Assembly: GCF_964059045.1 (NCBI RefSeq)
Contig: NZ_OZ060402.1
Span: 330,001 to 362,000 of the forward strand
Direction: 5' to 3'
Length of the DNA stretch: 32,000 nucleotides
DNA from: Candidatus Saccharimonadota bacterium
GTDB lineage: Bacteria; Pseudomonadota; Gammaproteobacteria; Enterobacterales; Enterobacteriaceae
Position 1 is the stretch's first letter, and each line of letters starts with the position of its first letter. The notes beneath the pieces are model-generated. The model was not told the origin of the DNA and made no database searches. It saw only the letters and a program-made list of their open reading frames with translations. Shown here in pieces: positions 6,407 to 29,354 of this stretch. The position numbers and the translations under genes were made by a program.

Positions 6407-7282
6407 ATGATTAGAATAATTATTTTTTTATTCACTAATTTATCAGTAATGTTAATTTTTGGATTAATATTAAGTTTTACATCAATAGATATAAATAGTC
6501 TCTATGGTTTAATGATTATTTCTGGTTGTTTTGGATTTAGTGGATCATTGATTTCATTATTTATGTCAAAATGGATTGCTTTATATTCTGTTGGAGGTCA
6601 AATTATTTCCAAACCTAGTAATCCTAATGAAGAATGGTTAATGAATATTGTAAAGAAACATGCTGATAAAATGGGGATTATGACTCCTGAAATAGCTATT
6701 TATCCTGCTCTAGATATTAATGCATTTGCAACTGGTCATAGTAAAAATTCAGCATTAATAGCAATTTCTTTAGGATTGTTAAAAAAAATGAATTTAAATG
6801 AAGCAGAAGCTGTTATAGCACATGAAATGTGTCATATTTATAACGGTGATATGATTACTATGACATTAATACAAGGTGTAATAAATACAATAGTTATTTT
6901 TACATCTCGTGTTATTGCTAAAATTATTTCTACTAACTTCATTTCTAACAAAGAAGAAAATGAAAACAATCAAACTTCAATGATTTATTTTATTATATCT
7001 ACGATATTAGATATATTATTTGGAATTTTAGCTAATATAATTGTTTTGTGGTTTTCTAGAAATCGTGAATTTTATGCTGATGCAGGATCTGCTAAATTAG
7101 TTGGAAAATATAAAATGATTGCAGCATTAGAAAAATTAAAAACTAGTTATGAACCAGAAGAACCTAATAATATAATTGCATTTTGTATTAATGGTAAATC
7201 TAGTGCTATTTTAAAATTATTTAGATCACATCCTTCATTAGAACAAAGAATTACAGCTTTATATAATGAAAAATATATGTAA
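6407..7282 (+). CDS. htpX: Membrane zinc metalloprotease HtpX
   Basis: 291-aa ORF with the HEMCH (HExxH) motif, N-terminal TM helices and REFYADAGSAKLVG. It is collinear with E. coli HtpX. Confidence 0.93.
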   Translation: MIRIIIFLFTNLSVMLIFGLILSFTSIDINSLYGLMIISGCFGFSGSLISLFMSKWIALYSVGGQIISKPSNPNEEWLMNIVKKHADKMGIMTPEIAIYPALDINAFATGHSKNSALIAISLGLLKKMNLNEAEAVIAHEMCHIYNGDMITMTLIQGVINTIVIFTSRVIAKIISTNFISNKEENENNQTSMIYFIISTILDILFGILANIIVLWFSRNREFYADAGSAKLVGKYKMIAALEKLKTSYEPEEPNNIIAFCINGKSSAILKLFRSHPSLEQRITALYNEKYM

Positions 7283-7382
7283 TATATAAGTTTTTATTAT
7301 TTTTTACAAGATAAAATCTGTTTATTGAGACAATCTCAATAAACAGATTTTATCTTGTAAAAAATAATAAAAACATATATAA
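7282..7382. repeat. 101-bp near-perfect palindrome at the htpX 3' end (giant hairpin; possible terminator or 3' stabiliser)
   Basis: Checked base by base. 7290-7330 is the exact reverse complement of 7334-7374 (41 bp, 3-nt loop 7331-7333). After one A/A mismatch (7289/7375), 7 more pairs follow (7282-7288 with 7376-7382). The outermost pair uses the last base of the htpX stop codon. Confidence 0.85.
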
Positions 7383-7436
7383 TAAATTGTTAATTTTATT
7401 ATATTATTATTTTTAATAGTATTTATAAATATTTTT

Positions 7437-7488
7437 TTTGTTTTAATTATAAAAAATTTTTAAAAAAAAATATTTTATAATTAAAACA
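7437..7488. repeat. Inverted repeat with 17-bp perfect arms between htpX and cspC
   Basis: ttgttttaattataaaa (7437-7453) is the reverse complement of ttttataattaaaacaa (7472-7488), with an 18-nt A/T loop. It lies immediately upstream of the GC-richer cspC leader. Confidence 0.5.
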
Positions 7489-7489
7489 A

Positions 7490-7640
7490 GTAACAATTTC
7501 TGTTTATGAAAGGCATTATCAAGTTAAAAAATTCAGAGTAAAGACGTTGATTCAACTGATCTTGCCGAATCTTATATTTATGCCTCATGCAGTTATGTTT
7601 CTAATTTTTATAAAAACAATATTTTAAGGAAATTGCAAAA
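7490..7640 (+). promoter_or_regulatory. Putative structured 5' leader of cspC
   Basis: About 150 nt directly upstream of cspC is visibly richer in G/C than every other spacer in the window, for example gaaaggcat...gacgttgattcaactgatcttgccgaatc...atgcctcatgcag. Enterobacterial csp genes are known to carry long regulatory 5' UTRs. No TSS can be seen in the sequence. Confidence 0.35.
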
Positions 7641-7850
7641 ATGGCAAAGATTAAAGGTCAAGTAAAGTGGTTCAATGAATCTAAAGGTTTTGGTTTTATA
7701 ACTCCATCAGATGGTAGCAAAGATGTATTTGTACATTTTTCTTCTATACAAGGAAATGGATTCAAAACACTTTCTGAAGGTCAAAATGTTGAATTTGAAA
7801 TTCAAGATGGACAAAAAGGTCCTGCTGCAGTTAATGTGTTTGCAATATAA
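7641..7850 (+). CDS. cspC: Cold-shock-domain protein CspC
   Basis: The 69-aa [72 protein letters not shown] is nearly identical to E. coli CspC, and closer to it than to CspE. The RNP1 and RNP2 motifs are present. Confidence 0.95.
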
Positions 7851-7890
7851 CTTTATTCAACCTAATTTAAAAAAAACTTGATATATAAAT

Positions 7891-7946
7891 AATAATATTA
7901 AAAAAGCCTTTGCTGAAAAATTTGCAAAGGCTTTTTTAATATTATT
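7891..7946 (+). terminator. Rho-independent-type terminator hairpin after cspC (hairpin A)
   Basis: The 23-bp perfect stem pairs aataatattaaaaaagcctttgc (7891-7913) with gcaaaggcttttttaatattatt (7924-7946). The core gcctttgc/gcaaaggc is followed by TTTTTT and preceded by AAAAAA, giving a bidirectional form. Confidence 0.75.
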
Positions 7947-7995
7947 CAAACTAAATTATTTTTCAGCATAATTTAGTTTGAATAATATTAAAAAA
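7932..7995. repeat. Second hairpin (B) that overlaps the 3' arm and U-tract of the cspC terminator
   Basis: 28-bp perfect arms at 7932-7959 and 7968-7995 flank an 8-nt loop, ttttcagc. The left arm reuses 7932-7946 from hairpin A. aataatattaaaaaa occurs as a direct repeat at 7891-7905 and 7981-7995. Confidence 0.6.
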
Positions 7996-8159
7996 TAAAA
8001 TAAAAATAATCGATAATTCATTTATTAAAATAAGATATTATTTATATATATTTTATATAAAAAATATAAATATAAATTTATAATATATATGTTTATTTTT
8101 TAATTATAGTGAATAAAATTACTAATATTAATATATATTTATATTTTACAGAGATTATA

Positions 8160-9704
8160 ATGGAATTTTTTTTAGATACATCACGTGTAGCAGGATTATT
8201 CACACTAATTATTTTAGAAGTAGTATTAGGTATAGATAATTTAGTATTTGTATCAATTTTAACAGAAAAATTACCACCACTTCAACGTGATAAAGCACGT
8301 TTAATTGGTTTAAGTTTAGCATTATTCATGAGATTAAGTCTATTATCATTAATTTCCTGGATTGTTACTTTAGTAAATCCTATAATTCAGAATAAATATA
8401 TCAGTTTATCAGGAAGAGATTTAATTTTATTGTTTGGAGGATTTTTTTTATTATTTAAATCAACTATTGAATTACATGAAAGATTAGAAAATCACCAACA
8501 TAAACATTTAGACAATAAAAACTATGCTAGTTTCTGGCCTGTAGTTATTCAGATAGTAATTTTAGACGCTGTATTTTCATTAGATTCAGTAATTACTGCT
8601 GTTGGAATAGTTAATTCTTTGTTGATGATGATGATAGCTGTTATTGTAGCCATGAGCCTGATGTTGTTGGCTTCTAAAACGATAACATCATTTATGAATT
8701 TACATCCAACTGTTGTAGTATTATGTCTTAGTTTTTTATTAATAATTGGTTTATCATTAGTAGCAGAAGCTTTAGGTCTGGATATACCTAAAGGATATTT
8801 ATATGCTGCAGTAGGTTTTTCAATTATTATTGAATTGTTTAATCAAATAGCCCGTCATAATTTTATTAAACATCAATCAAAAATACCAATGAGACAACGT
8901 GCTGCAGAAGCAATATTAAGATTAATGATTCGAGAACGACAAAATAATAAAGAAGATAATATTTCTGAAAAAAACAATACTATCCCATTTGTTGAAAAAA
9001 TAGCATCCAATGCATTTCAAGAAGAAAAATACATGATTAATGGTGTTTTAACATTAGCAGCACGCTCTATTAGAAGCATTATGACACCAAGAAGAGCAAT
9101 ATCATGGGTAAATATTGAAAAAAATAGAGAAGAAATTAGAGTACAATTACTAGATACTCCACATAGTTTATTTCCAATTTGTAAAGGAGAATTAGATGAA
9201 ATTATTGGAATTGTTAGAGCTAAAGAATTATTAGTAAAATTAGAACAAAATATTAATGTTTCAGAATTTGCATCTCGAACACCACCTATTATTATTCCAG
9301 ATACTTTAGATCCAATTAATTTATTAGGCGTTTTGAAAAAATCAAAAGGAAGTTTAGTAATTGTGAGTAATGAATTTGGTGTTATTCAAGGACTTATTAC
9401 ACCATTAGATTTATTAGAAGCTATCGCAGGAGAATTTCCTGATGCAGATGAAACTCCAGAAATAATTATTGAAAAAAATAGTTGGTTAGTGAAAGGAAGC
9501 ACTGATTTACATTCATTACAACAATTATTTGATATAGAACATTTAATAAAAGAAAATCATTATGCTTCTTTAGCTGGACTTCTTATCGCTCAGAAAGGTC
9601 AATTGCCTCTTCCTGGAGAAATAATTTATATTCATCCACTACAATTTCATATTTTAGAATCAAATGAATATCGCATTGATTTAGTCCGTATAAAAAAAAT
9701 ATAA
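8160..9704 (+). CDS. yoaE: TerC-family integral membrane protein with CBS pair and CorC/HlyC C-terminal domain (YoaE)
   Basis: Collinear with E. coli YoaE from MEFF(L/M)D. Conserved runs include GIDNLVF, DKARL(I/L)[24 protein letters not shown](V/I)[22 protein letters not shown] and YR(I/V)DLVRI. The track ORF begins at an upstream GTG (8109). The ATG at 8160 matches the orthologue start. Confidence 0.9.
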
Positions 9705-9821
9705 TTGTAAAAAAAATAATTCTTTTTAAAATTTATTAAATAAAAATTAATATATTTTAAAAATTTATATTACAAAAATAATTAATTTAATTAATAAGGT
9801 ATAAAAAATAAAAATTATATT

Positions 9822-10496
9822 ATGAATAAAACAATTTTATCTATAGATACATCTATGCAAGCATGTTCAGTGGCTTTATTAATAAATGATCATATCGATT
9901 ATTTATATGAGGAATCTATTAAAAATCATACTAAAAAAATATTAACAATGATTCAAAACATTTTAATACGTAATAAATTGTTATTAAAAAAAGTTGATTT
10001 GTGTGCTATTACAAAAGGACCTGGTACATTCACTGGAATAAGAACAGGAATCTGTATTGCTACAGGTTTATCTATAGGATCAGATATTCCTGTTATTACT
10101 TTTTCTACATTAGAAATCTTAGCAGAGCAAGCATGGCGTGTCAAAAAAATTAAAAAATTAATTATAGCTATAAAATTAAATAAAAAATTAATATACTGGA
10201 ATATGTATATTAGAAAAAAAAATGGATTATGGGAAAAACAAACTAAAGAATTCATTTCAACACATCAAGAATTATATAATCAAATTTTAACAATAAAATC
10301 TGATTGGACAAGAATTGGAGATGGATGGAAAAATATTAATTTAAATTATAATATTCCTAATATAAAATATATAAAAATTATTCAACCTCATGCACAAGAT
10401 ATAATTATTTTGTCAAAAAATTTTTTAAAAAATAATCCATTTCCGATTAATACAATTATTCAACCAGATTATTTTTGTAATTATTTTGAATCATAA
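9822..10496 (+). CDS. tsaB: tRNA t6A37 threonylcarbamoyltransferase complex dimerisation subunit TsaB (YeaZ)
   Basis: The 224-aa ORF begins ILSIDTSMQACSVAL and contains GPGTFTGIRTGICIATGL, collinear with E. coli YeaZ (ILAIDTATEACSVAL...GPGSFTGVRIGIGIAQGL). Confidence 0.88.
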   Translation: MNKTILSIDTSMQACSVALLINDHIDYLYEESIKNHTKKILTMIQNILIRNKLLLKKVDLCAITKGPGTFTGIRTGICIATGLSIGSDIPVITFSTLEILAEQAWRVKKIKKLIIAIKLNKKLIYWNMYIRKKNGLWEKQTKEFISTHQELYNQILTIKSDWTRIGDGWKNINLNYNIPNIKYIKIIQPHAQDIIILSKNFLKNNPFPINTIIQPDYFCNYFES

Positions 10497-10590
10497 AAAA
10501 TTATTTTACAAGACAAAATTGAATTAAAATAATTTATGATATTTTAAAAATTATTTTTTATTCATTAAATAATAATTAAAAAAATCATTT

Positions 10591-10842
10591 TTATTCAGGT
10601 ATTGTAATATTCAATTCCAATATAGAAATATTTTTCTTGTTATATTCTAAATTAATTTGAATCATATTTGGATTTACATTAACATATTTTGATAAAATTA
10701 ACAAAATTTCATTTTTTAAAGTTGGAAAATAATCAGGTTCTTGATTATTTTTTCTATGTTCTGCAATAATAATTTGCAATCTTTGTTTTGCAATATTAGC
10801 TGTCTGCTTTTTATTATATAAAAAAAAATCTAACAATGCCAT
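10591..10842 (-). CDS. minE: Cell division topological specificity factor MinE
   Basis: MALLDFFLYNKKQTANIAKQRLQIIIAEHR matches E. coli MinE from residue 1. The track ORF is 5 codons longer. The ATG at 10842 has GGAGA 8 nt upstream and does not overlap the minD stop (10848-10850). Confidence 0.93.
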   Translation of the reverse strand: MALLDFFLYNKKQTANIAKQRLQIIIAEHRKNNQEPDYFPTLKNEILLILSKYVNVNPNMIQINLEYNKKNISILELNITIPE

Positions 10843-10847
10843 ATATG

Positions 10848-11660
10848 TTATCTCCAAAATAATCGTTTAAAAAAACTTTTTTTTTCTTCCTTCAGGAACC
10901 GAAATGGACAAGTATTACCAAGTAAACGATTAACTGAATCTAAATAAGCTTTTCCAGCATTAGAATGATGATCTAATATAATAGATTTTCCTTGATTAGA
11001 AGACTTTAAAACACAAATATCTTCAGGGATAACTCCTATTAATGGTATTCTAAGAATATCTAATACATCTTCTACACTTAGCATATCTCCTTGGTTAACT
11101 CTTTTTGGATCATAACGAGTTAGCAACAAATATTCTTTTATCGGTTCTTCTTTTTTTTCTGATCTTTGTGATTGAGAAGATAAAATACCCAACATTCTAT
11201 CTGAATCTCTAACAGAAGAAACTTCTGGATTGGTTATAACTACTGCTTCATCAGCAAAATAAATAGATAACATTGCCCCATTTTCAATACCAGCAGGAGA
11301 ATCACAAATAATATATTCAAATTTCATATTAATTAATTCTTGAAAAATTTTTTTTACACCATCTTTTGTCAGATATTCTTTATTTCTAGTTTGAGAAGCA
11401 GGTAATATAAATAAATTTTTAGTAATTTTATCTTTAATTAAAGCTTGATTCAAAAGAGCATCTCCTTGAATAACATTAATTAAATCATATACTACTCTCC
11501 GTTCACAACCCATAATTAAATCTAAATTTCTTAATCCTATATCAAAATCAATAACAATAGTTTTTTTCCCTTTTAAAGCAAAACCAGTTGCTAAAGCTGC
11601 ACTAGAAGTTGTTTTTCCTACACCTCCCTTCCCTGATGTCACTACAATAATACGTGTCAT
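10848..11660 (-). CDS. minD: Septum site-determining ATPase MinD
   Basis: The 270-aa ORF has the deviant Walker A GKGGVGKTT and is highly similar to E. coli MinD along its whole length, including the C-terminal amphipathic helix (KKSFFKRLF). Confidence 0.97.
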   Translation of the reverse strand: MTRIIVVTSGKGGVGKTTSSAALATGFALKGKKTIVIDFDIGLRNLDLIMGCERRVVYDLINVIQGDALLNQALIKDKITKNLFILPASQTRNKEYLTKDGVKKIFQELINMKFEYIICDSPAGIENGAMLSIYFADEAVVITNPEVSSVRDSDRMLGILSSQSQRSEKKEEPIKEYLLLTRYDPKRVNQGDMLSVEDVLDILRIPLIGVIPEDICVLKSSNQGKSIILDHHSNAGKAYLDSVNRLLGNTCPFRFLKEEKKSFFKRLFWR

Positions 11661-11684
11661 ATAAATATCCTATCTAATTATGAT

Positions 11685-12389: not shown

Positions 12390-12723
12390 ATTTATTAACT
12401 CTATTAAATATTTTTTTATATTATACAAATTGACAAAATATATATATGAAAATATTATTATTATATAAAATCAATATATATATAATATATCAATATAATA
12501 ATCAACAATATTTAATTAATTATTAATAATTTCGAATATATATAAAAAAAATAAAAATATTCTATAAAAACTTTTTAGGATAAACATTTGATATGAATTT
12601 TATTAAAATATATGTATAAATATTTTATTTTTATACAATAATAATTATATTGTGTGAATCATTAAATTTTAAATTAATATTTTTAGAAAAACATTAATAT
12701 TCAATATTATTTTTTAATAAATA

Positions 12724-12755
<32 letters not shown>

Positions 12756-13033: not shown

Positions 13034-14050
13034 ATGATGCATAAATTGAACAACGAAAGTCAATTATTAAATAAACATAAACACTTTTTAAAAAATAAAA
13101 ATATAATTTTTTATGGCGATATAAAAGATTGTTTTCCAATACTCTTTTCTAGTCAAAATACTAAAATATATACTACAAAATATAATATATGGACATTATT
13201 AACTAAGACTAACAAAAATATTTTTTTTAATTTTAAAATTCAAAAACAACATTGTATTAATACTAATTTAATTATTTATTATTGGCCAAAAAATAAAAAA
13301 GAAGCCAAATTTCAATTAAAATATTTATTTTCATGTCAATTTTTAAATTGTCAATTATTAGTAGTAGGAAAAAATAATAGTGGAGTTCGTAGCGTTCAAA
13401 ATATTTTAAAAAAAATGGTCAAAATAGAAAAATTAGATAGTGCAAAACATTGTTCTTTGTTTTTAGGTAATATACAAAAAAAAAATACAATAAATCTAGA
13501 AAAAATATTTAGTACACATATTTTAAATAATATAGTAATAAAAACATTACCAGGAGTTTTTGGTCATTCAGGATTTGACTCAGGAACTTTGTTTCTCGCT
13601 TCGACATTTACAAAAAAAACTACAGGAAAGGTATTAGATATTGGTTGTGGAAGTGGTATTTTGTCTATTTTGTTACACCAAAAATCAGAAAAAGTCAATT
13701 TAACTTTAATCGATATTGATTTATTAGCTATAAAATCAAGCAAAAAAAATTTTGAAATAAATAATATTAAAGGCAAAATATTAGCTAGTGATTTATTTTC
13801 AAATATTCACATTCATGAAAAATTTGATTTAATAATTTCTAATCCACCTATACATGAAGGAATAAAATTCACAAAAAAAATAATTAAAAAAATTATTTTA
13901 GAATCTTGTAAATATTTAAAACCTAAAGGAGAACTAAGATTTGTAACTCAATCATCTTTATTATTTTTTGAAATTCTTAAAAAACAATTCTCAATAATAA
14001 AAATATTAAAAAAAAATAATTCTTTTATAATATATCAAGCTTGGATTTAA
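13034..14050 (+). CDS. rsmC: 16S rRNA (guanine1207-N2)-methyltransferase RsmC
   Basis: The 338-aa ORF contains IIYYWPKNKKEAKFQL, VVGKNNSGVRS, KTLPGVFGHSGFD, the SAM motif VLDIGCGSGILS and the catalytic NPPIH. It is collinear with E. coli RsmC. A second in-frame ATG at 13037 is equally possible. Confidence 0.85.
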   Translation: MMHKLNNESQLLNKHKHFLKNKNIIFYGDIKDCFPILFSSQNTKIYTTKYNIWTLLTKTNKNIFFNFKIQKQHCINTNLIIYYWPKNKKEAKFQLKYLFSCQFLNCQLLVVGKNNSGVRSVQNILKKMVKIEKLDSAKHCSLFLGNIQKKNTINLEKIFSTHILNNIVIKTLPGVFGHSGFDSGTLFLASTFTKKTTGKVLDIGCGSGILSILLHQKSEKVNLTLIDIDLLAIKSSKKNFEINNIKGKILASDLFSNIHIHEKFDLIISNPPIHEGIKFTKKIIKKIILESCKYLKPKGELRFVTQSSLLFFEILKKQFSIIKILKKNNSFIIYQAWI

Positions 14051-14085
14051 ATATTGTTTTTATTATTTAAAAATATTTTTTAAAA

Positions 14086-14169
14086 TACCCGGAGCGGGAC
14101 TTGAACCCGCAAAGCTGTACAGCCGAGGGATTTTAAATCCCTTGTGTTTACCAATTTCACCACCCGGGC
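14086..14169 (-). tRNA. leuZ: tRNA-Leu (anticodon UAA), class II long variable arm, no encoded CCA
   Basis: The reverse complement is GCCCGGGTGGTGAAATTGGTAAACACAAGGGATTTAAAATCCCTCGGCTGTACAGCTTTGCGGGTTCAAGTCCCGCTCCGGGTA. It is near-identical to E. coli leuZ, with anticodon loop TTTAAAA and a GGTTCAAGTCC T-arm. Confidence 0.92.
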
Positions 14170-14186
14170 TTAAATAATTATTTTTA

Positions 14187-14257
14187 AGGCGCATTCCGGA
14201 ATTGAACCGAACTAAACGGATTTGCAATCCGTCGCATAACCAATCTGCCAATGCGCC
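14187..14257 (-). tRNA. cysT: tRNA-Cys (anticodon GCA), no encoded CCA
   Basis: The reverse complement is GGCGCATTGGCAGATTGGTTATGCGACGGATTGCAAATCCGTTTAGTTCGGTTCAATTCCGGAATGCGCCT. It folds as a cloverleaf with anticodon loop TTGCAAA. The cysT-leuZ order is the same as in E. coli. Confidence 0.92.
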
Positions 14258-14588
14258 CAATATCTTCTATATTAAACTAAAACTAGAACATTTATCAAGA
14301 TATTATATGATATTTTTTTTTTTTTTTAATATTATTAAAATTATTCATTTTAATGGTTTTTATGTATTATTTTATTAAAAATATGAATTATATATTTAAT
14401 AAATGACAAAAAATAATAAAATATAAAAATTTTCATGTGAAGTAATTTAAAAAATAAAATATTTATATGAAAAAATAAAATATAATATAATTTTAAAATC
14501 TAAATATTTATCAAAATTCAAAACTAAATCAAATCAAAATGTATTACAATTACTATTGTAATTCCATTGTTTTAAAAATAGTATTTAT

Positions 14589-14673
14589 GGAGGGATGGCC
14601 GAGAGGCTTAAGGCAGCGGTCTTGAAAACCGCCGATGAGCAATCATCCGAGAGTTCGAATCTCTCTCCCTCCA
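14589..14673 (+). tRNA. serT: tRNA-Ser (anticodon UGA), class II, no encoded CCA
   Basis: The sequence is GGAGGGATGGCCGAGAGGCTTAAGGCAGCGGTCTTGAAAACCGCCGATGAGCAATCATCCGAGAGTTCGAATCTCTCTCCCTCCA. The acceptor, anticodon (CTTGAAA), variable (gatga/tcatc) and T (gagag/ctctc) stems all pair. It is similar to E. coli serT. Confidence 0.92.
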
Positions 14674-14738
14674 AAAATTAATTAAATAATAAAATATAAT
14701 ATTATTATATATTTTAAATTTTATAATAATCTATATTA

Positions 14739-15824
14739 TTATTTACCATGAACGTTAATTTCAACTCTACGATCTGGAGCTAAACAACTCATTAATAAGG
14801 GTTTTTGCTGAATATTTTTACAAAATTGATTTACTAATGATTTTTCTTCCAATTCTTTTTCATTAATATATTTTTTTAAAACACCTCTTTTGGTTAAATA
14901 TTTTATAACAGATTTGATACGATCACGAGATAAATTTTTGTTGATATCTTTATTTCCATATTGATCAATATATCCTGTAATATTGTATTTTACACTGGAA
15001 AAATTCATTTTTTTAATTTTTGAATTCAATTTTTCTAATGCCATTTTAGATGATGAATTTAATTGAGCGCTTCCAAAAGGAAATAAAATTGTTTCTTTTA
15101 TATTTTTTAATGGATGCATAATAAAAGAATTTTTGAATTCATTATTATAATCATTTATATTTTTAAATTTAAAAATTAAACTCATACTTAATAATCCATT
15201 TTTAAATAATCTATTATGCAATAATCCATTTTTGAATAATTCATTATGCAATAATCCATCTTTAAATTTTATTAAATCGTTATATTTGAGATTTAATAAA
15301 TCTTTTTTCCATGAATAATCCAATTGATATGAAATATTATTTATGATTTCTTTTTTAATACCAATAGAAAAAATTGGCATAATTTTTATTTTATTATGAA
15401 GAATTTTCCCAAATAAATTTTTATTGATATTGATATTAGAATTAATTTCACTACCTATACGATTATAAATTGAAAACCTACTACTAATTGGATAAGAAAA
15501 TTTAATTCCTGAACTTAAATTGATAGTATTTAATTTAATTTGATTGATATTTTGATTATAATTTTTATAACCAATGCTATCATAACAAAACTCAAAGCTT
15601 AAATATGGATTTTGTTCATAACCTAAAATAAAAGATATTGGAATTTTATTTATAAATTTATTTATATTATGTTTTTTTTTTAATAATTCAGGATGAACAG
15701 AAAAATTAAAATCATATAAATTTAATTTAGATCCTAAATATAATGCTGATTCGTTATTTTCATGTGCTTCTACAGTAAAAGAAAAAAATAACAAAAATAT
15801 AATACAAAAGACTGAATATTTCAT
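14739..15824 (-). CDS. ompA: Outer membrane protein A (OmpA-like porin with C-terminal peptidoglycan-binding domain)
   Basis: The 361-aa ORF has a signal peptide (MKYSVFCIIFLLFFSFTVEA) followed by YLGSKL as in OmpA. The C-terminal OmpA_C motifs are present (FPFGSAQL, ITGYIDQYGN, LSRDRIKSV, LAPDRRVEI). Confidence 0.85.
   Translation of the reverse strand: MKYSVFCIIFLLFFSFTVEAHENNESALYLGSKLNLYDFNFSVHPELLKKKHNINKFINKIPISFILGYEQNPYLSFEFCYDSIGYKNYNQNINQIKLNTINLSSGIKFSYPISSRFSIYNRIGSEINSNININKNLFGKILHNKIKIMPIFSIGIKKEIINNISYQLDYSWKKDLLNLKYNDLIKFKDGLLHNELFKNGLLHNRLFKNGLLSMSLIFKFKNINDYNNEFKNSFIMHPLKNIKETILFPFGSAQLNSSSKMALEKLNSKIKKMNFSSVKYNITGYIDQYGNKDINKNLSRDRIKSVIKYLTKRGVLKKYINEKELEEKSLVNQFCKNIQQKPLLMSCLAPDRRVEINVHGK
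15188..15267 (-). repeat. 30-bp in-frame tandem repeat (about 2.6 copies) inside ompA
   Basis: The plus-strand units are ataatccatttttaaataatctattatgca (15191-15220), ataatccatttttgaataattcattatgca (15221-15250) and ataatccatctttaaa (partial). They encode DGLLHNELFK / NGLLHNRLFK / NGLL between the barrel and C-terminal domains. Confidence 0.85.
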
Positions 15825-18149: not shown

Positions 18150-18154
18150 TATTT

Positions 18155-18565: not shown

Positions 18566-18814
18566 TTCAAAAATGTGAATCAATTGTTTAGGTTATTTAG
18601 GTCAATAATTGATTCTCAAAAATAAAATTATACAATATTTATCAAAAAATAATATTGTTAATATAAAATGGTAAATTTAAAATTTATATAAATAATAATG
18701 AATTATTAATTATACCAAAAAACATTTATATAATTTATATTTGCTATATCTTAATTAAATTAATTTTGCATAAATATTTTTATATTAAATAAATATTTTA
18801 TCAGGATATTATAA

Positions 18815-20023
18815 ATGAATTATTCCGAATCTATTAACGGATTACAGATGACATTAGATCAAATTAAAACTATTAGTAACAATATCGCTAACTCCGCTAC
18901 CAATGGTTTTAAATCTAATAAAATATATTCAAAAGATATCATAACTGAAACTGATCAAAATAATAATGAAAAACATGGATTAGGAGCTATTCAATCTCGA
19001 ATTCATTCAAATTATTTACCAGGAGATATAAAAAAAACTGGAAAAAATTTAGATTTTTTTATTAATCAAGATGGTTTTTTTCGTTTAGAAGATATTGATG
19101 GTTCAATTTATTATACAAGAAATGGAGAATTTTATATTGACAATAAAAATAATTTAGTTAATATGAATGGAATGTATTTAACAGGGTATTTAACAATAGA
19201 TGAAAAATTTAAAAAAGAACCAGAAATAATTAATTTAAATAAATTTTCAATAATGCCTGCTAAACAAACTACATCAGTCAATGTATCTGCATCACTTAAT
19301 AAATCAGAACCAATTATAAAACAAAATCTTCAAATTAACAAATCAAACACTTATAATCATAAAAATGATATGATCATATTCGATAATAAATCTCAAATGC
19401 ATATAATAAGGTTATATTGGAAAAAAATATTTCCGACCGCATGGGATGTCTATTTTTTTGATGAAACAGTAAAAAATAAACAAATAGCAAAATGTACTGT
19501 TGAATATAACACAGATATTACTTCAATTGCAAGTAATAATTTTGTTGGTAAAATATTAGAATATAATGGATCAAAAGAATCTAATTTTGAAATTAAATTT
19601 GATAATTTTACCCAAAATAATAAAGCAAGTGAATTTGATTTAACGCAACAAAATGGATGTCGCTCTGGTGCATTATATTCATATACTGTTTTAGAAAATG
19701 GTAATATAATAGGCAAATATTCTAATCAAAAAAATAATATAGTTGGTAAAATTTCTATAAATAAATTTGCTAATTTAGATGCATTAATTAAAACAAAAGA
19801 TAATTTATGGAAAATTGATAAGAATTTTTATTCTAATAATTCTAATATTACAGAAGAAAATGATTTACACAGTTTAACTATAGGTGCTTTAGAAACTTCT
19901 AATGTTAATATAAATAATGAATTAATTGATCTCATTTCAGCACAAAAAAACTATCAAGCAATCATACAATCAATTAAAATAAAAGATAAAATGATTGGAA
20001 CATTGATCAATAATTTAAGCTAA
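18815..20023 (+). CDS. flgE: Flagellar hook protein FlgE
   Basis: The 402-aa ORF is the same length as E. coli FlgE. Matches include NNIANSATNGFKS, QDGFFRLEDIDGSIYYTRNGEF, NLVNMNGMYLTGY, GALETSNVNINNELIDLISAQKNYQA and a C-terminal LINNL. Confidence 0.88.
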   Translation: MNYSESINGLQMTLDQIKTISNNIANSATNGFKSNKIYSKDIITETDQNNNEKHGLGAIQSRIHSNYLPGDIKKTGKNLDFFINQDGFFRLEDIDGSIYYTRNGEFYIDNKNNLVNMNGMYLTGYLTIDEKFKKEPEIINLNKFSIMPAKQTTSVNVSASLNKSEPIIKQNLQINKSNTYNHKNDMIIFDNKSQMHIIRLYWKKIFPTAWDVYFFDETVKNKQIAKCTVEYNTDITSIASNNFVGKILEYNGSKESNFEIKFDNFTQNNKASEFDLTQQNGCRSGALYSYTVLENGNIIGKYSNQKNNIVGKISINKFANLDALIKTKDNLWKIDKNFYSNNSNITEENDLHSLTIGALETSNVNINNELIDLISAQKNYQAIIQSIKIKDKMIGTLINNLS

Positions 20024-20807: not shown

Positions 20808-20831
20808 AAATAATTACAAGGATAAAATTTT

Positions 20832-22617: not shown

Positions 22618-22696
22618 AATTATTAATTAAAAATATATTTTTATTATTATTATAATATTCAAAATATTATTTTGCATTCATTTGTAAAGGTATATT

Positions 22697-24132: not shown

Positions 24133-24211
24133 AGAAAATTGTATAATATATTTATCAATACATATTAATATATTTTAATTGTATTATTTGTGTAATAATT
24201 TAAGGAAAGAA

Positions 24212-26005
24212 ATGAATACAGTAATCAATTCATCAATTAATGCAATACATGATATACAAATGTCTTTAAATAAAAATATTAAAAATGTAGAAAATATTAA
24301 TACATCTAACATTAATATTAAAAATGTAAATAATGATCCAAAAAATGAAAAATCAAACATTGATAGAACAAATTTAGATAAAAATCGCAATCCTATCTAC
24401 TACTCAGAATCTCCTAAAAAAATAAACGATCCTGACCAAGAAGAAGAAATGAATGAAATCGATGAAGAAGAAATGAATTTTACTGATGAAGAAGAAATCA
24501 ATGAATATAGTGAAAAAAATGATAATACTGAATTATTAATAAAAAATGTATATCATTTAAATTCTATTCAACAATCTGAAGAAGCAGAATGTATTAAGAT
24601 AAATGAACTTAATACAATATTAGAAAAACACCAAAATATATTTTATAAATTTATCCCAGAATTTCATTCTTGTGTTAAAGCGGCAATTAAAGACAAGATT
24701 GGTACGCATTTTAGTCCAAACACAATATCATCTGCTCAAAAAGTTATACAAGAATTTCAAAGTCTTAATAAAGATTTAAATTTTTTATATAATAAAATTA
24801 ATTATAGTATAAATTATTATGTTATGAGAATCAATCAAATTATTAATTCTATTATCAATATCAATAAATCTATTCAAGATAATTTATATTTAAAACAATC
24901 AAAAGACATTGATAAATCGAATGATTTACAAAAATTTTTACAATTAAGAACAAATAAAATTAATCAATTAAATAAAATTATTGGAACTGAAGAAAAAATA
25001 CAAGATAATAATTATATTTTGACTATTAATAATAAATTTAATTTAATTCATAATTTACACACCAATAAATTAATTGTTGCTGAAGATGAATACTATGATA
25101 ATCAATTTAGTATAGGATATATTGAACCAAAAAATGAAAAAATCATATTAATAGAAAGATTAATAACTACCGGTGTATTAGGTGGACTATTAAAATTTCG
25201 TCATGATACATTAAGTCACGCAAAAAGTAAAATTGGTCAGTTAATAGTTAATTTTACATATAGTTTTAACGATCAAAATAAATCTGGTTATGATATTAAC
25301 AATCGTGATGGAAACAATTTTTTTTCCAAGATTGTGCCTGATGTTAAACCTAATAAAAATAATCAATCAGATATATTATTAATTTCTGCATGGAATGATT
25401 CTAGTATTGCTAAACCAGAACAATATAAATTAACATTTGTTAATTCTAATCAATGGAACATCAAAAAAATTTCTGATAATAAAAATATTGATTATATAAA
25501 AATTGATTTAAATAAAAATACATCATGTATCATATTTGATGGAATAAAAATAAAATACCCAAAAGATAAATTAATTAATAATGATCAATACATTGTAAAA
25601 ACTCAAGATGATATCATTAATAAATTACATGTAGGAGCAACAACTTCTACTAAAATTGGTTTATATAAAAATTTTTTTGATACTGAAGATTATTCATTTA
25701 ATGCTCAAAATATAATTGCTTTAAATGATGGAATATTAGTAGAACACAAAGAAACATTAAATGATTCATATGATAATTTGAAAAATCAAATACAAAAAAA
25801 AATAGCAATATTAAGTTTAAATCATAAACAAAAAAAATCAATGACAAAAGTATTAAAATATCATAAAGTTAAAAAACCTAATCCTATTAATTTAGATGAA
25901 ATATATAAAGACACTACTGATTTACATAATAGTTATATGGCTAATACAAAAGTATTAAAAATCGAAAATAATATTGAAGATCAAATAATAAATATATTTA
26001 ATTAA
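24212..26005 (+). CDS. flgK: Flagellar hook-associated protein 1 FlgK (divergent, with an insertion)
   Basis: The central TTGVLGGLLKFRHDTL...IGQLIVNFTYSFNDQNKSGYDINNRDGNNFF and the C-terminal LDEIYKDTTDLHNSYMANTKVLKIENNIEDQIINIF are collinear with E. coli FlgK. The start is set at the ATG at 24212, which has AAGGA 5 nt upstream. The track ORF starts at TTG 24179. Confidence 0.8.
   Translation: MNTVINSSINAIHDIQMSLNKNIKNVENINTSNINIKNVNNDPKNEKSNIDRTNLDKNRNPIYYSESPKKINDPDQEEEMNEIDEEEMNFTDEEEINEYSEKNDNTELLIKNVYHLNSIQQSEEAECIKINELNTILEKHQNIFYKFIPEFHSCVKAAIKDKIGTHFSPNTISSAQKVIQEFQSLNKDLNFLYNKINYSINYYVMRINQIINSIININKSIQDNLYLKQSKDIDKSNDLQKFLQLRTNKINQLNKIIGTEEKIQDNNYILTINNKFNLIHNLHTNKLIVAEDEYYDNQFSIGYIEPKNEKIILIERLITTGVLGGLLKFRHDTLSHAKSKIGQLIVNFTYSFNDQNKSGYDINNRDGNNFFSKIVPDVKPNKNNQSDILLISAWNDSSIAKPEQYKLTFVNSNQWNIKKISDNKNIDYIKIDLNKNTSCIIFDGIKIKYPKDKLINNDQYIVKTQDDIINKLHVGATTSTKIGLYKNFFDTEDYSFNAQNIIALNDGILVEHKETLNDSYDNLKNQIQKKIAILSLNHKQKKSMTKVLKYHKVKKPNPINLDEIYKDTTDLHNSYMANTKVLKIENNIEDQIINIFN
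24434..24508 (+). repeat. In-frame roughly 24-bp tandem repeat (3 copies) encoding acidic D/E-E-E-E-(M/I)-N units inside flgK
   Basis: The units are gaccaagaagaagaaatgaatgaaatc, gatgaagaagaaatgaattttact and gatgaagaagaaatcaatgaatat. Together they encode DQEEEMNEI DEEEMNFT DEEEINEY. Confidence 0.75.
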
Positions 26006-26040
26006 TAACATTGATTAAAATTCAATTCTCAAAAATAAAA

Positions 26041-26080
26041 TTGTCATATATATTAATTCTTTAATTAATATATATGACAA
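26041..26080. terminator. Hairpin between convergent flgK and rne (candidate bidirectional terminator)
   Basis: The 18-bp perfect stem pairs ttgtcatatatattaatt (26041-26058) with aattaatatatatgacaa (26063-26080) around a 4-nt loop, cttt. A-rich sequence flanks both sides. Confidence 0.6.
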
Positions 26081-26158
26081 AACTATCAAATTTAAAAATA
26101 AAATATAATCATGATAATCATATTTTTAATTTTTAAATTTTATTATAATAATTTATTT

Positions 26159-29083
26159 TTATATTTTAAAAATTGGAGAACTTGAACGATTTTTTGCTAC
26201 ATGTCCTCCTGCAGCTCTATATTTTTTGTTGATTAATATTGAATATGATTTTATTTGATGAATATATAATTTTTTATTTTGCATATAAAATGAAATTTTT
26301 GTGACTGGAGCACTAGATTGTTCTTTTTTTTTAATTTTTTTAAAACATTTTTTTTTAGAAATTGATAATATTGATTTATTTGAATTTTTTTTTATAAAAT
26401 TTAATCGATTACAATGATTAACTGGATAATTATTTAAAAAAAATAATTTTTTTTTGTTATTATTTATTAATGGTTGAAAGAAATTCTTTTGATAACCATT
26501 ATTTTTAATAATTTTTTTATTTGATAAAATTAAATTTGTTTTTTTTTGAATTACACTATTTTTGATTTTTTTTAATACTAAATTAATTTGATAATAATAT
26601 ATCTCTAGTAAAATTAATAAACTAATACAATCTAAATTATTTTTTAAACAAGATTTAATAAATGATAATTGAGGATATTGTATCAATGTCAGTGCTAATT
26701 TTTGTTCAGGAGATAATACAGAAAGCATACTAGATGATATGACCTTTTTTAATTGTTTTTTATAATAATTTTTATTTTCATAACGGATATTTAATAAAAT
26801 ATTTTTTAATAAATTAAATTGATTAAAAATAATATTTATAGAATTGATATTATTATAATTTCTTTTTTGATTTATTTTTTTAATTTTTAATTTTTTAGAT
26901 ACTATTGATGAATTTATTAGTAATGGAAAACCATTATTTTTTGTTACTAATTGTAATTGTTTGCTTTTTAATATATTATTTTTTTTAAAATATTTTTTTT
27001 TATGTGCTATTAAAAATAAATTATATTCTTTAAGTGTATTTAAATATTTTAAAATATTATAATTTTTTTCCAATGAAAAATATTTATTTTTTAATATTTT
27101 TTTATAAAAATTATTTTTTTCAAAATTATTAATATAATTTATTTTTTGTACATCATTTAAATCAAATATTTTTGCATGTATTTTAAATGGATTTTTTTGA
27201 TTGGATTGAATAATTAAATTTTTATTTTGATATTGTTTTTTACTTTTAAAAAAAATAATTTTTTTCCAATTAAATTTATGTAATAAATATTTTTTATGTT
27301 TTTCTATATTTTTATTTTTAATTTTTTTTATATTAAAAAATAATATATTATTAAATAATAATAATATTTTTTTTATAATTTTATTTTTAAAAATAATATT
27401 TTGAATACCAAAAAATTGTTTAATAATTTTTTGGTATTTTATTTTAAAAAAATTTTTTTTAATATTGAATTGCATATTAGAAATAGTTTTATCTGAAAAC
27501 ATTTGATATTGTTGTTGTTTTTTTTCTAACATTGATTGTGTTGAATAACTATTTTGTTTATGATAATATAATTTTGATAAATTATAACTAATTTTTTTTA
27601 TATTTTCTCCTTTTCGAATACGAGTAATAGAATAATTAGGTGTTTCAATATGTTTGCTAGGAACAATAATAGTTCTTCCACCTAGTTGACGTTTTTCAAT
27701 ATTATTAACTTCACTTCGTTTCTCATTTAATAAATAACATGCGATTTCTATAGGAACAATAGCATGAACAGCATAAGTATTTTCTTTAATAGCTTCTTCT
27801 TCTATTAATCTTAATATAGATAGAGATAATGATTCATTATCTCTAATAGATCCAGTGCCACTACATCTGGAACAAACATGATAACTAGATTCTCCTAAAG
27901 ATGGACGTAATCTTTGACGAGACATTTCCAATAATCCAAAACGAGAAATATCACTAATTTGAATACGTGCTCTATCATGTTTAACAATTTCACGTAATTT
28001 GTTTTCAATAGATTTTTGATTCTGAAATAATGTCATATCAATAAAATCAATAACTATTAATCCTCCTAAATCCCGTAATCTTAATTGACGAGCAATTTCA
28101 TAAACAGCTTCTAAATTTGTATTAAAAGCAGTTTCTTCAATATCTAATCCTTTAGTCGAACGAGATGAATTAACATCAATTGCAGTTAATGCTTCTGTAT
28201 TATCAACAACAATTTCACCTCCTGAAGGTAATCTCACTTCTCTTTTAAATGCTGAGCTAATTTGTGATTCAATTTGATAATAACTAAACAAAGGTATTGA
28301 ACCCTTATATAACTTTATTTTACTAGAGAAATCTAACCTTCCTAATAAATGAATATATTGATAAGCAAATTCTAGAATTTTAGGGTTATCAATTATAATT
28401 TCACCTATATCTTGACGTAAATAATCTCGAAAAGAACGTAAAATAATATTACTTTCTTGATGTAATAAAATAGGGGATGAATTTATTTTCGCTAGATCTT
28501 GAATTGAATTCCATAATTGTAATCTAAAATTTAAATCCCATTGTAAAATTTCAATTGATTTATTCAATCCTGCTGTACGAATAATAATTCCCATATTTTG
28601 AGGTATAGATAATGATAGTATGATTTCTTTTAATTTTATTCTATCAAGTCCTGTAATTCTTTTCGATATTCCTATTGTTTTATTATTATTTGGCATAAGT
28701 ACTAAATAACTGCCAGCTAAACTAATAAAAGTAGTTAATGCTGCTCCTTTATTACCTCTTTCTTCTTTATCAATTTGAACTATTATTTCTTGTCCTTCTT
28801 TTAAAAAATTTTTTATATTAAAATTTGAATCTAATGAATAATCTTGAGATAAATAACTATGAGAAATTTCTTTTAATGGTAAAAATCCATGTTTTTCTAA
28901 TCCATAATCAACAAAAACAGCTTCTAAACTAGGTTCAATTCTAGTAATTTTACCTTTGTAAATATTAGATTTTTTTTTCTCTTGACCTGGAATTTCAATA
29001 TCTAAATCGTATAATCGTTGTCCATCTACAAGAGCAACTCGTAATTCTTCTTTTTGAGTAGCATTAATTAACATTCTTTTCAT
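26159..29083 (-). CDS. rne: Ribonuclease E
   Basis: The N-terminal half is collinear with E. coli RNase E from MKRMLINATQKEELRVALVDGQRLYDLDIE. It includes the S1 domain, the catalytic region (VIDFIDM) and the Zn-link CSRCSGTG. The start is set at the ATG at 29083. The track ORF carries a 33-codon upstream extension with no homology. The C-terminal half is N/K/I-rich low complexity. Confidence 0.92.
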   Translation of the reverse strand: MKRMLINATQKEELRVALVDGQRLYDLDIEIPGQEKKKSNIYKGKITRIEPSLEAVFVDYGLEKHGFLPLKEISHSYLSQDYSLDSNFNIKNFLKEGQEIIVQIDKEERGNKGAALTTFISLAGSYLVLMPNNNKTIGISKRITGLDRIKLKEIILSLSIPQNMGIIIRTAGLNKSIEILQWDLNFRLQLWNSIQDLAKINSSPILLHQESNIILRSFRDYLRQDIGEIIIDNPKILEFAYQYIHLLGRLDFSSKIKLYKGSIPLFSYYQIESQISSAFKREVRLPSGGEIVVDNTEALTAIDVNSSRSTKGLDIEETAFNTNLEAVYEIARQLRLRDLGGLIVIDFIDMTLFQNQKSIENKLREIVKHDRARIQISDISRFGLLEMSRQRLRPSLGESSYHVCSRCSGTGSIRDNESLSLSILRLIEEEAIKENTYAVHAIVPIEIACYLLNEKRSEVNNIEKRQLGGRTIIVPSKHIETPNYSITRIRKGENIKKISYNLSKLYYHKQNSYSTQSMLEKKQQQYQMFSDKTISNMQFNIKKNFFKIKYQKIIKQFFGIQNIIFKNKIIKKILLLFNNILFFNIKKIKNKNIEKHKKYLLHKFNWKKIIFFKSKKQYQNKNLIIQSNQKNPFKIHAKIFDLNDVQKINYINNFEKNNFYKKILKNKYFSLEKNYNILKYLNTLKEYNLFLIAHKKKYFKKNNILKSKQLQLVTKNNGFPLLINSSIVSKKLKIKKINQKRNYNNINSINIIFNQFNLLKNILLNIRYENKNYYKKQLKKVISSSMLSVLSPEQKLALTLIQYPQLSFIKSCLKNNLDCISLLILLEIYYYQINLVLKKIKNSVIQKKTNLILSNKKIIKNNGYQKNFFQPLINNNKKKLFFLNNYPVNHCNRLNFIKKNSNKSILSISKKKCFKKIKKKEQSSAPVTKISFYMQNKKLYIHQIKSYSILINKKYRAAGGHVAKNRSSSPIFKI

Positions 29084-29202
29084 GATATCAATCTCTCGTA
29101 TTATTTTAAAATTATAATACATTTTAACAAACAAAATATTATTTAATTCAAGTCTAAATATTGAATGTTTTAAATAATACAATTATATATTTTTATTGTA
29201 TT

Positions 29203-29354
29203 ATTTTATTATTTTTTTAAAAAATTATTTTTGAAAAAGTAGAATACTAATAATATGCTCTCTAGTAATATAATTTTAAAAAATTACATTACTAGAGAGC
29301 ATATTATTAGTATTCTACTTTTTCAAAAATAATTTTTTAAAAAAATAATAAAAT
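29203..29354. repeat. 152-bp near-perfect palindrome in the rne-rluC divergent spacer
   Basis: Verified base by base. 29203-29277 is the reverse complement of 29280-29354 with a single mismatch (A29270 opposite C29287). That gives 67 perfect bp, one mismatch, then 7 bp, with a 2-nt apex. Confidence 0.9.

Follow-up and report, generated by a model that had tools for sequence, protein, structure and literature searches.

Unrelated perfect palindromes in the intergenic DNA of a Buchnera lineage, with a probable origin in local template switching

Introduction

What produces long and perfect palindromes in the spacers of a symbiont chromosome, and what keeps them there? The question is raised by a 32-kb segment of the chromosome of the aphid symbiont Buchnera aphidicola that runs from aspS to fabD (the window, meaning the whole stretch of DNA analysed here), which carries palindromes spanning 40–152 bp. 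The template-switch mechanism as such is already known, and its lineage of ideas includes the Ripley model and the E. coli quasipalindrome (QP) reporters of Lovett and co-workers. A four-point model is reportedly due to Loytynoja and Goldman, and further work in 2022 is attributed to Monttinen and Loytynoja. Here, the palindromes are compared with the syntenic DNA of other Buchnera lineages, and their probable origin in repeated, local template switching is weighed against the alternatives.

Results

Palindromes of the window

An exhaustive search for perfect stems, with the loop limited to 20 nt, yielded six perfect inverted repeats whose arms measure 67 (+7), 41 (+6), 28, 23, 18 and 17 (+6) bp and whose loops measure 2–18 nt (Table 1); a separate repeat search of the window gave the same set. 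All six lie outside the coding sequence given by the open reading frames of the window; the htpX stop codon is touched only by the outer, imperfect part of the 7277–7387 palindrome. The original prediction had described the repeats as intergenic with short loops, which is correct, and its coordinates are off by a few bases at most (the 41-bp perfect arm begins at 7290, 7282 being the outer, imperfect start). Four of the six cluster around a single gene, cspE, and the events behind them may have depended on this local context. Four (7290, 7891, 7932 and 26041) lie within ~100 nt downstream of a stop codon, and the palindrome at 7438 lies between htpX and cspE. A seventh, minor hairpin of 14 bp (27404–27438) is located within the low-complexity 3' half of rne.

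Table 1. Palindromes and conserved upstream blocks of the window.
Feature	Position	Strand	Perfect arm (bp)	Loop (nt)	Extended form	Location and remarks
Largest palindrome	29203–29277 / 29280–29354		67	18	75-nt arms, one mismatch, 2-nt centre	divergent rne/rluC spacer
Palindrome after htpX	7290–7330 / 7334–7374		41	3 (CAA)	7277–7387, 54-nt arms at 94%	extended form starts at the htpX stop codon
Second hairpin after cspE	7932–7995		28	8	none	downstream of the cspE terminator
cspE intrinsic terminator	7891–7946	+	23	10	none	core GCCTTTGC/GCAAAGGC, A-tract and T-tract
Hairpin between flgK and rne	26041–26080	-	18	4	none	convergent flgK/rne spacer; followed by TTTTATTTTT on the rne strand
Palindrome before cspE	7438–7489		17	18	24-nt arms at 96%, 4-nt loop	over the putative cspE promoter
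Conserved cspE 5' leader	7478–7640	+				7490–7640 is 86% identical to both Eriosoma Buchnera
rne-proximal upstream block	29084–29165	-				~65 nt nearly identical to E. lanigerum Buchnera, alignable to ~105 nt

Excess over chance and over other lineages

The GC content is 21.6% for the whole window (A.41, T.37, G.11, C.11) and 11% for its spacers, which total 6.9 kb. In dinucleotide shuffles of the whole window (n = 60), the longest arm was 15 bp, and arms of at least 14 bp numbered 0.08 on average against seven observed. When each spacer was shuffled separately (n = 300 each), arms of at least 17 bp averaged 0.023 against six observed, and the longest arm in any shuffle was 19 bp. Taken singly, the 17- and 18-bp arms are only ~2%-per-window events; the set of six, as well as each arm of at least 23 bp, is far beyond chance. 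That arms of 23 bp or more are not chance events had been argued from base frequencies that are near the window values, but the spacers are more AT-rich, so that the chance of pairing per base rises to ~0.40; the conclusion is unchanged, and both kinds of shuffle bear it out.

The 32-kb window has six such hairpins; the syntenic regions of seven other Buchnera lineages with similar GC content, 188 kb in total, have three, which puts the density in the window ~12-fold higher (Poisson P = 1.6e-5). The genome-wide scan called for in the original prediction was run on the scale of the window and these 188 kb of relatives. The nearest relatives in the databases share 74% (HtpX) and 60% (RluC) protein identity. 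The Buchnera of Eriosoma lanigerum, the nearest relative, offers an independent replicate in a perfect palindrome of its own at a different locus (60-bp arms, L083:1387–1516; z-score of the minimum free energy against shuffles, z, -19.5), which is missing in the Buchnera of E. harunire (z +0.1) and whose arm homology looks mosaic.

The htpX–cspE spacer

The conservation of the cspE leader (Table 1) implies that parts of these spacers are constrained and can be aligned. The right arm of the 7277–7387 palindrome is collinear with, and 69–74% identical to, the sequences of the E. lanigerum and E. harunire Buchnera, and shares an exact 14-nt block, TTATCTTGTAAAAA, with the latter, whereas the left arm, with 46–52% identity, is at the level of unconstrained spacer. 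The 7438–7489 palindrome displays the same contrast: its right arm (7473–7489), which includes TATAAT and in which the conserved cspE leader starts, is 76–88% identical to the relatives, and its left arm 41–53%. The contrast is drawn from ~50 nt per arm and two outgroups, with a Fisher P of ~0.02 per comparison that is a rough estimate and not a computed value. Because the left arms are exact reverse complements of right arms that match the relatives, the left arm must be the copy in each of these two palindromes, and, as judged from the alignments, only one arm is ancestral.

The 7277–7387 palindrome folds with a z of -15.4, versus -0.3 and -0.6 for the htpX-3' segments of the relatives, which fold no better than shuffles. 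The whole spacer comprises 358 nt in the window and 336 and 328 nt in the relatives. Since this gain of 22–30 nt is smaller than one 41–48-nt arm, the event was mostly a replacement, not an insertion; replacement-type events form part of the four-point template-switch model (PMC5453318). The sequences outside the perfect 41-bp core include complementary TATATA/TATATA stretches, both of them ancestral, which could plausibly have served as a microhomology seed.

Hairpins that elaborate terminators

The hairpin at 7891 lies ~40 nt after cspE and has the organization of an intrinsic terminator, that is, a stem-loop followed by a U-tract after the stop codon (GGCTTTTTT). Its core, AAAAAGCCTTTGC..GCrrrGGCTTTT, is kept ~70 nt after cspE in the E. 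lanigerum and E. harunire Buchnera, in both of which the stem is shorter and, as DNA, imperfect; the z of the region is -9.5 in the window versus -4.4 and -3.9 in the relatives. Some of the changes that perfect the cspE stem are G-to-A and could also result from AT-biased point mutation.

The left arm of the 7932–7995 palindrome overlaps 15 nt of the right arm of this terminator, which results in the layout X-hairpin1-X'-hairpin2-X, where X is AATAATATTAAAAAA. This second hairpin was found in neither Eriosoma Buchnera.

The hairpin at 26041, which meets the same description on the minus strand (Table 1), is likely the terminator of rne (and flgK), as suggested by its position and T-run. Its ortholog in the E. 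lanigerum Buchnera has 11 bp with the same core, GTCATATATA; with respect to it, the window gains 11 apical nt and shows one compensatory outer pair (C:G to T:A), and the z is -8.0 versus -3.5. A terminator consensus scan returned none in 7200–8200 or 25950–26200, partly owing to its loop and GC rules.

The rne upstream region

The largest palindrome is positioned 120–271 nt upstream of the rne ATG (29083), with a predicted RNA minimum free energy of -91.6 kcal/mol and a z of -21.9. At the corresponding place 5' of rne in the locus L082 of a relative there is no hairpin, and the segment folds no better than shuffles (z -0.8). The rne/rluC spacer of the E. lanigerum Buchnera is 200 nt shorter than that of the window, and no homologue of the 29203 region is recognisable in it beyond the conserved ~105-nt rne-proximal block. 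From its conservation and position, this block is probably the promoter with a short 5' UTR.

The palindrome is located where Enterobacteria have the structured rne 5' UTR element (RF00040, rne5), but it lies beyond the conserved proximal block, and the E. lanigerum Buchnera is without a recognisable counterpart. With an E threshold as high as 10, an Rfam search of the window returned nothing but chance miRNA-hairpin models and no match to rne5; the Buchnera loci gave no match either, and the positive control, the Erwinia locus L001, scored 210 bits.

Discussion

Template switching as the origin of the palindromes

We consider it probable that the palindromes arose by template switching during replication, repeatedly and locally, in the spacers of this Buchnera lineage. 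They are not random, have no sequence in common and are for the most part missing in the nearest relatives; their arms of 17–67 bp are exact reverse complements of adjacent sequence. A derived state is indicated for each: four (7290, 7438, 7932 and 29203) have no hairpin in the relatives examined, and the other two are shorter and imperfect there. One-arm orthology is found at 7277–7387 and 7438–7489; the spacer is saturated around 29203 and 7932. These comparisons were made with the Eriosoma and other Buchnera.

From these patterns we infer the replication mechanism itself. The nascent strand would fold back, copy nearby sequence as its reverse complement, and then rejoin the template. Each event would either replace a neighbouring stretch by the exact reverse complement, giving new perfect hairpins at 7290, 7438, 7932 and probably 29203, or lengthen and perfect an existing terminator hairpin, as proposed for 7891 (after cspE) and 26041 (between flgK and rne). 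The comparison with the nearest genomes thus favours the recent, repeated and local inverted copying that the original prediction had suggested as one of two possibilities, but not its framing of the repeats as one uniform class, because two of the six elaborate conserved intrinsic-terminator hairpins.

Template-switch and quasipalindrome-associated mutations (PMC8794818, PMC5453318, PMC7202029) likewise copy adjacent sequence as an exact reverse complement in one event, create perfect stems or perfect imperfect ones, and can be near length-neutral; they need no recombination proteins, and the one-arm-ancestral pattern of the window matches them. Unlike the quasipalindrome events described, the tracts of the window are long (28–75 nt copied) and concentrated in one endosymbiont lineage. 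To our knowledge, the bacterial QP events and most evolutionary template-switch mutations that have been described involve a few to a few tens of nt.

Alternative explanations

The palindromes could instead be RNA elements under selection (terminators, either intrinsic or bidirectional, 3' stabilisers, or processing sites for RNase III or RNase E). Purifying selection on pairing would then hold the arms perfect, and how they first arose would matter less, a reading that we regard as unlikely for the set. It draws on the canonical terminator at 7891, with its GC core and T-tract conserved in relatives, on the 26041 hairpin with its compensatory pair and its T-run on the rne strand, and on the htpX stop codon being the start of the 7290 palindrome; the position of four palindromes near 3' ends and of 7438 between genes means that selection on RNA hairpins may explain their retention. 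Stronger terminators could also be advantageous, as those of Buchnera APS are predicted to be weak (PMC3091783). In their positions, and as conserved hairpins in relatives, 7891 and 26041 do resemble intrinsic (Rho-independent, often bidirectional) terminators. However, the stems of the window are far longer and almost pure A/T, with 41–75 bp far exceeding the needs of termination. No U-tract follows the stem at 7290, 7932, 7438 or 29203, and two of these four are not at a 3' end: 7438 lies over a promoter, and 29203 is upstream of the conserved rne-proximal block, in a region that the E. lanigerum Buchnera does without. Four of the six are missing in relatives, the arms pair perfectly as DNA although RNA function would accept G-U pairs and mismatches, and selection in Buchnera is weak.

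It is quite improbable that the palindromes are old and held identical by continuing, conversion-like correction of one arm by the other. The six perfect stems contain zero mismatches in 194 paired positions, all mismatches being confined to outer or apical extensions, and unconstrained spacer is at near-random identity between the window and its nearest relative; moreover, the outer 13 nt of the 7277–7387 palindrome are complementary at 10 of 13 positions (77%), which is how a once larger, older palindrome would look if it decayed from its ends. Against this, both Eriosoma Buchnera lack four of the six, which are, therefore, not older than that split. Because Buchnera lacks RecA and nearly all recombination proteins (PMC1193525), any conversion would itself be template switching, and the idea amounts to a version of the explanation preferred here.

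It is very unlikely that the palindromes are artefacts of sequencing or assembly (fold-back joins, for example, or the hairpin artefacts of graph assemblers). The 54- and 75-nt arms are close to common assembly k-mer sizes, but the six palindromes have six sizes and are placed within otherwise collinear spacers, five being flanked by conserved sequence on both sides and 29203 demonstrably on the rne-proximal side only. One palindrome replaces sequence with little change in spacer length, two extend hairpins present in independent assemblies, and a similar palindrome with 60-bp arms occurs in the independent assembly GCA_964059125.1.

Searched with blastn-short against the window and the loci of the relatives, each arm retrieved only itself, its partner and generic AT-rich words, in line with the original view that the repeats share no common core and are not copies of a mobile element. 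The direct-repeat families of the window are all of low complexity (70–78%). It is hardly credible that the repeats belong to a family of mobile or selfish hairpin elements (REP, MITE or RHE-like). They are palindromic, intergenic and clustered, and two of them carry the 14-mer TTTTATTATTTTTT near their outer ends, but this 14-mer is a generic AT word that recurs at 14408 and 16696. No arm has a further copy in the window or the 188 kb of relatives, the palindromes share no core or termini and are without target-site duplications, and in two of them one arm is orthologous local sequence. The REP/BIME of Enterobacteria, the Rickettsia palindromic elements and the mitochondrial repetitive hairpin-forming elements (PMC2800124) are also intergenic hairpins of compact or AT-rich genomes, but they are multi-copy and share sequence, whereas each palindrome of the window is unique and derives from its own neighbourhood.

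Persistence in a recombination-poor symbiont

The products of template switching proposed here resemble the long perfect palindromes studied in E. coli (PMC4245961, PMC3315005) in their short loops and their capacity to form hairpins or cruciforms during replication. Those of E. coli are engineered, measure 246–460 bp and are cleaved by SbcCD; those of the window are natural, measure 40–152 bp and are apparently stable. Tolerance of cruciforms, as put forward in the original prediction, would be in keeping with the lack of RecA and nearly all recombination proteins that the literature states for Buchnera (PMC1193525). Most of the latter would be neutral by-products and not selected elements, and they may persist because a recombination-poor symbiont destroys hairpins and cruciforms inefficiently.

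Palindrome inventory

An exhaustive search for perfect stems with loops of at most 20 nt, with which a separate repeat search agrees, recovered the same six palindromes that the original prediction had listed from the sequence. All six lie in intergenic DNA, as had been claimed, within 4 of the 27 spacers. The perfect stems contain no mismatch across 194 paired positions, and mismatches are confined to the outer or apical extensions. In dinucleotide shuffles of the whole window, the arm length never exceeded 15 bp. When each spacer was shuffled separately (6.9 kb, 11% GC), 0.023 arms of at least 17 bp were expected against the six observed, and the longest arm in 300 such trials was 19 bp. The two shortest palindromes are marginal when taken singly; the whole set, and every arm of at least 23 bp, are not the product of chance. 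The observation is thus real and significant, and the non-chance origin that had been proposed is borne out. Short perfect hairpins (arms of at least 10 bp) are also more frequent in the spacers than in shuffles (24 versus 10.1, an approximately 2.4-fold excess).

Palindromes of the window, named by their start coordinates, with arm identities from the alignment to the two Eriosoma Buchnera
Feature	Position	Perfect arm (bp)	Loop (nt)	Extended form	Identity to relatives
Palindrome 29203	29203-29354	67	18	75-nt arms, one mismatch, 2-nt centre	
Palindrome 7290	7290-7374	41	3	7277-7387, 54-nt arms at 94%	
Right arm of 7277-7387					69-74%, collinear; exact 14-nt block in E. harunire
Left arm of 7277-7387					46-52%, the level of unconstrained spacer
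Palindrome 7932	7932-7995	28	8	none	
Palindrome 7891	7891-7946	23	10	none	
Palindrome 26041	26041-26080	18	4	none	
Palindrome 7438	7438-7489	17	18	24 nt at 96%, 4-nt loop	
Right arm of 7438-7489 (TATAAT and start of cspE leader)					76-88%
Left arm of 7438-7489					41-53%
cspE leader	7490-7640				86%
AATAATATTAAAAAA, copy X	7891-7905				
AATAATATTAAAAAA, copy X' (inverted)	7932-7946				
AATAATATTAAAAAA, copy X	7981-7995				

When each arm was used as a blastn-short query against the window and the loci of the relatives, only the arm itself, its partner and generic AT-rich words were returned, in line with the claim that the palindromes share no common core. A 14-mer at the outer ends of two palindromes (TTTTATTATTTTTT) was considered as a shared terminal motif and dropped as a generic AT word, as it recurs elsewhere in the window. 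Direct-repeat "families" proved to be low-complexity noise at 70-78%, and no target-site duplications are visible at the palindromes. A plasmid search with 7200-8200 (megablast) gave only a cspE coding match.

Comparison with other Buchnera

The window (32 kb, 21.6% GC) carries, in order, aspS, pykA(-), zwf, htpX, cspE, yoaE, tsaB, minE/D/C(-), rsmC, tRNA-Leu/Cys/Ser, ompA(-), flgA(-), flgB-C, flgE-K, rne(-), rluC, rpmF and fabD. The gene names were inferred from the Pfam families of syntenic genes in relatives and from named protein matches. The 27 spacers, 6.9 kb in all, have only 11% GC versus 21.6% overall. The top named matches of RluC and HtpX are Buchnera aphidicola proteins, and the nearest relative, the symbiont of Eriosoma lanigerum, shares only 60% (RluC) and 74% (HtpX) identity. 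A protein database search that included JGI and Logan data found no close relative of the window lineage. The window is therefore part of a divergent Buchnera lineage that has no near relative in the databases.

Some further features of the window were recorded. The flgD gene is absent between flgC and flgE, where a 249-bp spacer (18566-18814) contains no ORF of at least 25 aa; the Buchnera of OZ060372 retains a FlgD of 227 aa. The RNase E C-terminal half (rne 3' half, 26159-27600) is extremely Lys/Asn/Ile-rich and of low complexity, and the sole coding perfect hairpin with arms of at least 14 bp (14 bp; 27404-27438) lies in it. The ORF finder places the rne start 33 codons further upstream (TTG, 29182) than the conserved MKRMLINAT start at 29083.

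A genome scan with an RluC alignment listed mostly free-living Gammaproteobacteria and at least one Buchnera locus. Syntenic 21-kb loci of seven other Buchnera lineages (188 kb in total, 21-25% GC) were obtained, with HtpX and RluC homologues from Buchnera used for exact look-ups. They comprise the symbionts of E. lanigerum (L081/L083), E. harunire (L085), Tetraneura akinire (L053), Baizongia pistaciae (L086) and Kaburagia rhusicola (L087), the Buchnera OZ060372 (L082/L084) and an APS-like strain (L088). These 188 kb contain three perfect hairpins with arms of at least 17 bp, versus six in the 32-kb window, whose density is therefore about 12-fold higher (Poisson P = 1.6e-5 on the relatives' rate). 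In three relatives, the orthologous regions (rne-rluC and flgK-rne) contain no perfect hairpin with arms of at least 14 bp.

One of these three belongs to the E. lanigerum symbiont, which has a perfect palindrome of its own in the divergent serS/trxB spacer (L083:1387-1516, OZ060395.1), with 60-bp arms, a 10-nt loop and an RNA folding z-score (z, minimum free energy against shuffles) of -19.5; at the same site, the E. harunire symbiont has no hairpin (z +0.1). Long perfect palindromes therefore emerge now and then, and independently of one another, in this branch of Buchnera, and the window has unusually many of them. The ancestry of the serS/trxB palindrome looks mosaic, with its right-inner part best conserved.

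Other hairpins and gaps were seen in these loci. In L084 (OZ060372.1), gene calling gives no cspE in the htpX-yoaE interval (10880-11541), where a putative cspE-like remnant is seen by eye, and no min gene in the tsaB-rsmC interval (13853-15327); a GC-containing 19-bp perfect hairpin lies in the gap left by minE (14000-14041). In L088, a perfect hairpin with 22-bp arms lies between ompA and murJ (18876-18936), and a 14-bp hairpin stands 12 nt past the htpX stop (10894-10933). At least one distant lineage thus also has a hairpin directly after htpX, of unrelated sequence.

Elaborated terminators and probable de novo palindromes

The six palindromes had been proposed to form a class. They are real but heterogeneous, with two elaborated terminators and four that probably arose de novo. 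Both Eriosoma Buchnera carry, about 70 nt 3' of cspE, the hairpin AAAAAGCCTTTGC-loop-GCrrrGGCTTTT (z about -4), predicted to be a short terminator of the canonical kind in which one or two positions are G·T. Palindrome 7891 keeps this core, made perfect and lengthened to 23 bp. In the convergent flgK/rne spacer, the E. lanigerum symbiont has an 11-bp hairpin with the core GTCATATATA (z -3.5). The window hairpin at this place, palindrome 26041, shares that core and has 11 extra apical nucleotides (z -8.0). In addition, one outer pair has changed in a compensatory way (C:G to T:A), and a run of T lies on the rne strand. Consensus promoter and terminator scans were uninformative, since at 11% GC matches are about as frequent as in shuffles.

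The remaining four, palindromes 7290, 7438, 7932 and 29203, lack a U-tract after the stem and are probably not canonical terminators. The palindrome 3' of htpX has a z of -15.4, versus -0.3 and -0.6, the level of shuffles, in the orthologous segments of the two Eriosoma Buchnera. The region upstream of rne has a z of -21.9, versus -0.8 in L082; there, a 42-nt, 71% repeat was considered as the ancestor of palindrome 29203 and discarded, as it folds no better than shuffles. A reading of palindrome 29203 as an rne 5' UTR sensor was likewise abandoned. Rfam gives no match in the window or any of the Buchnera loci, in contrast to Erwinia, where rne5 is found at 210 bits; the palindrome lies beyond the conserved proximal block, and E. 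lanigerum has no recognisable counterpart. In E. lanigerum, the rne-rluC spacer is shorter by 200 nt, and only the rne-proximal block of about 105 nt can be aligned.

Palindromes 7891 and 7932 overlap in the layout X-hairpin1-X'-hairpin2-X, where X is the 15-mer AATAATATTAAAAAA. Such a layout would result if a neighbouring arm were copied in inverted form in successive rounds. No second hairpin 3' of the cspE terminator was found in the relatives examined. The loop region of the cspE terminator (7911-7921, TGCTGAAAAAT) is complementary over 11 nt to that of the next hairpin (7958-7968, ATTTTTCAGCA), and the X, X', X arrangement allows three mutually exclusive helices. In E. lanigerum, ATTTTTCAG stands straight after the cspE terminator stem.

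Origin of the arms

Orthologous spacers were compared, as had been suggested, with the cspE-yoaE and rne-rluC spacers reliably alignable only within conserved blocks. The hairpins are lacking or shorter in the relatives, and in the htpX-cspE spacer, aligned three ways with the two Eriosoma relatives, homology is seen for one arm only of palindromes 7277-7387 and 7438-7489. In both palindromes the left arm reproduces the right arm exactly in reverse complement, so that the left arm must be the copy. This spacer measures 358 nt in the window and, in the relatives, 336 and 328 nt; the gain of 22-30 nt falls short of one arm, and the sequence was therefore mostly replaced rather than inserted. The 41-bp perfect core is flanked by TATATA/TATATA complementarity, ancestral on both sides, which is a plausible microhomology seed. 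The long cspE 5' leader (7478-7640) is 86% identical to that of Eriosoma Buchnera, far above the remaining spacer, and matches no Rfam family at the gathering score.

The footprint agrees with quasipalindrome-associated mutations in E. coli (PMC7202029), and the mechanism itself is already known. The template-switch origin originally proposed is the best-supported explanation, which we hold with moderate confidence only. Assembly artefacts are a very improbable source: the spacers around the palindromes are collinear, and the flanks are conserved, as shown on both sides for five of the six; two of the palindromes lengthen hairpins that other, independent assemblies also contain; and a similar palindrome occurs in an independent assembly.

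Discussion

Unconstrained spacer has near-random identity between the window and its nearest relative. The perfect arms would reflect either recent events with fast turnover or repeated re-copying. Buchnera lacks RecA and nearly all homologous-recombination proteins (PMC1193525), so that homogenisation of the arms, if it occurs, would be template switching as well. In E. coli, template switching is limited by RecBCD, which degrades regressed forks and resets them (PMC6357072), and palindrome hairpins are cut by SbcCD (PMC4245961). Speculatively, a loss of RecBCD/SbcCD-type functions in the lineage would account for both birth rate and persistence. It is conceivable, if rather doubtful, that this lineage, and less so its Eriosoma-associated relatives, switches templates within a strand over long tracts at an elevated, heritable rate. 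Behind this could stand a lost or weakened safeguard, either one that normally stops such switching (ExoI/SSB, or fork resetting by RecBCD) or one that destroys hairpins (SbcCD). In that case, perfect palindromes of 40-150 bp would keep appearing in the spacers and disappearing from them, a rare source of new sequence, new terminators and promoter-overlapping structures in a genome for which only shrinkage is otherwise known.

Buchnera genomes serve as the classic example of stasis, with spacers believed to evolve only through point mutations, small slippage indels and deletions (PMC3091783). Here, stretches of 28-75 nt would have been rewritten in single steps to perfect hairpins, some at gene ends or over a promoter. 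It has been proposed that RNA stems originate by template switching (PMC8794818). An excess that is not genome-wide would be a minor oddity of the cspE and rne neighbourhoods; if it is genome-wide, it would indicate a lineage-specific change in replication or repair and provide dated "before and after" cases of terminator birth. Having neither RecA-dependent recombination nor mobile DNA, the lineage would offer an unusually clean natural setting in which to watch template switching make and extend RNA and DNA hairpins.
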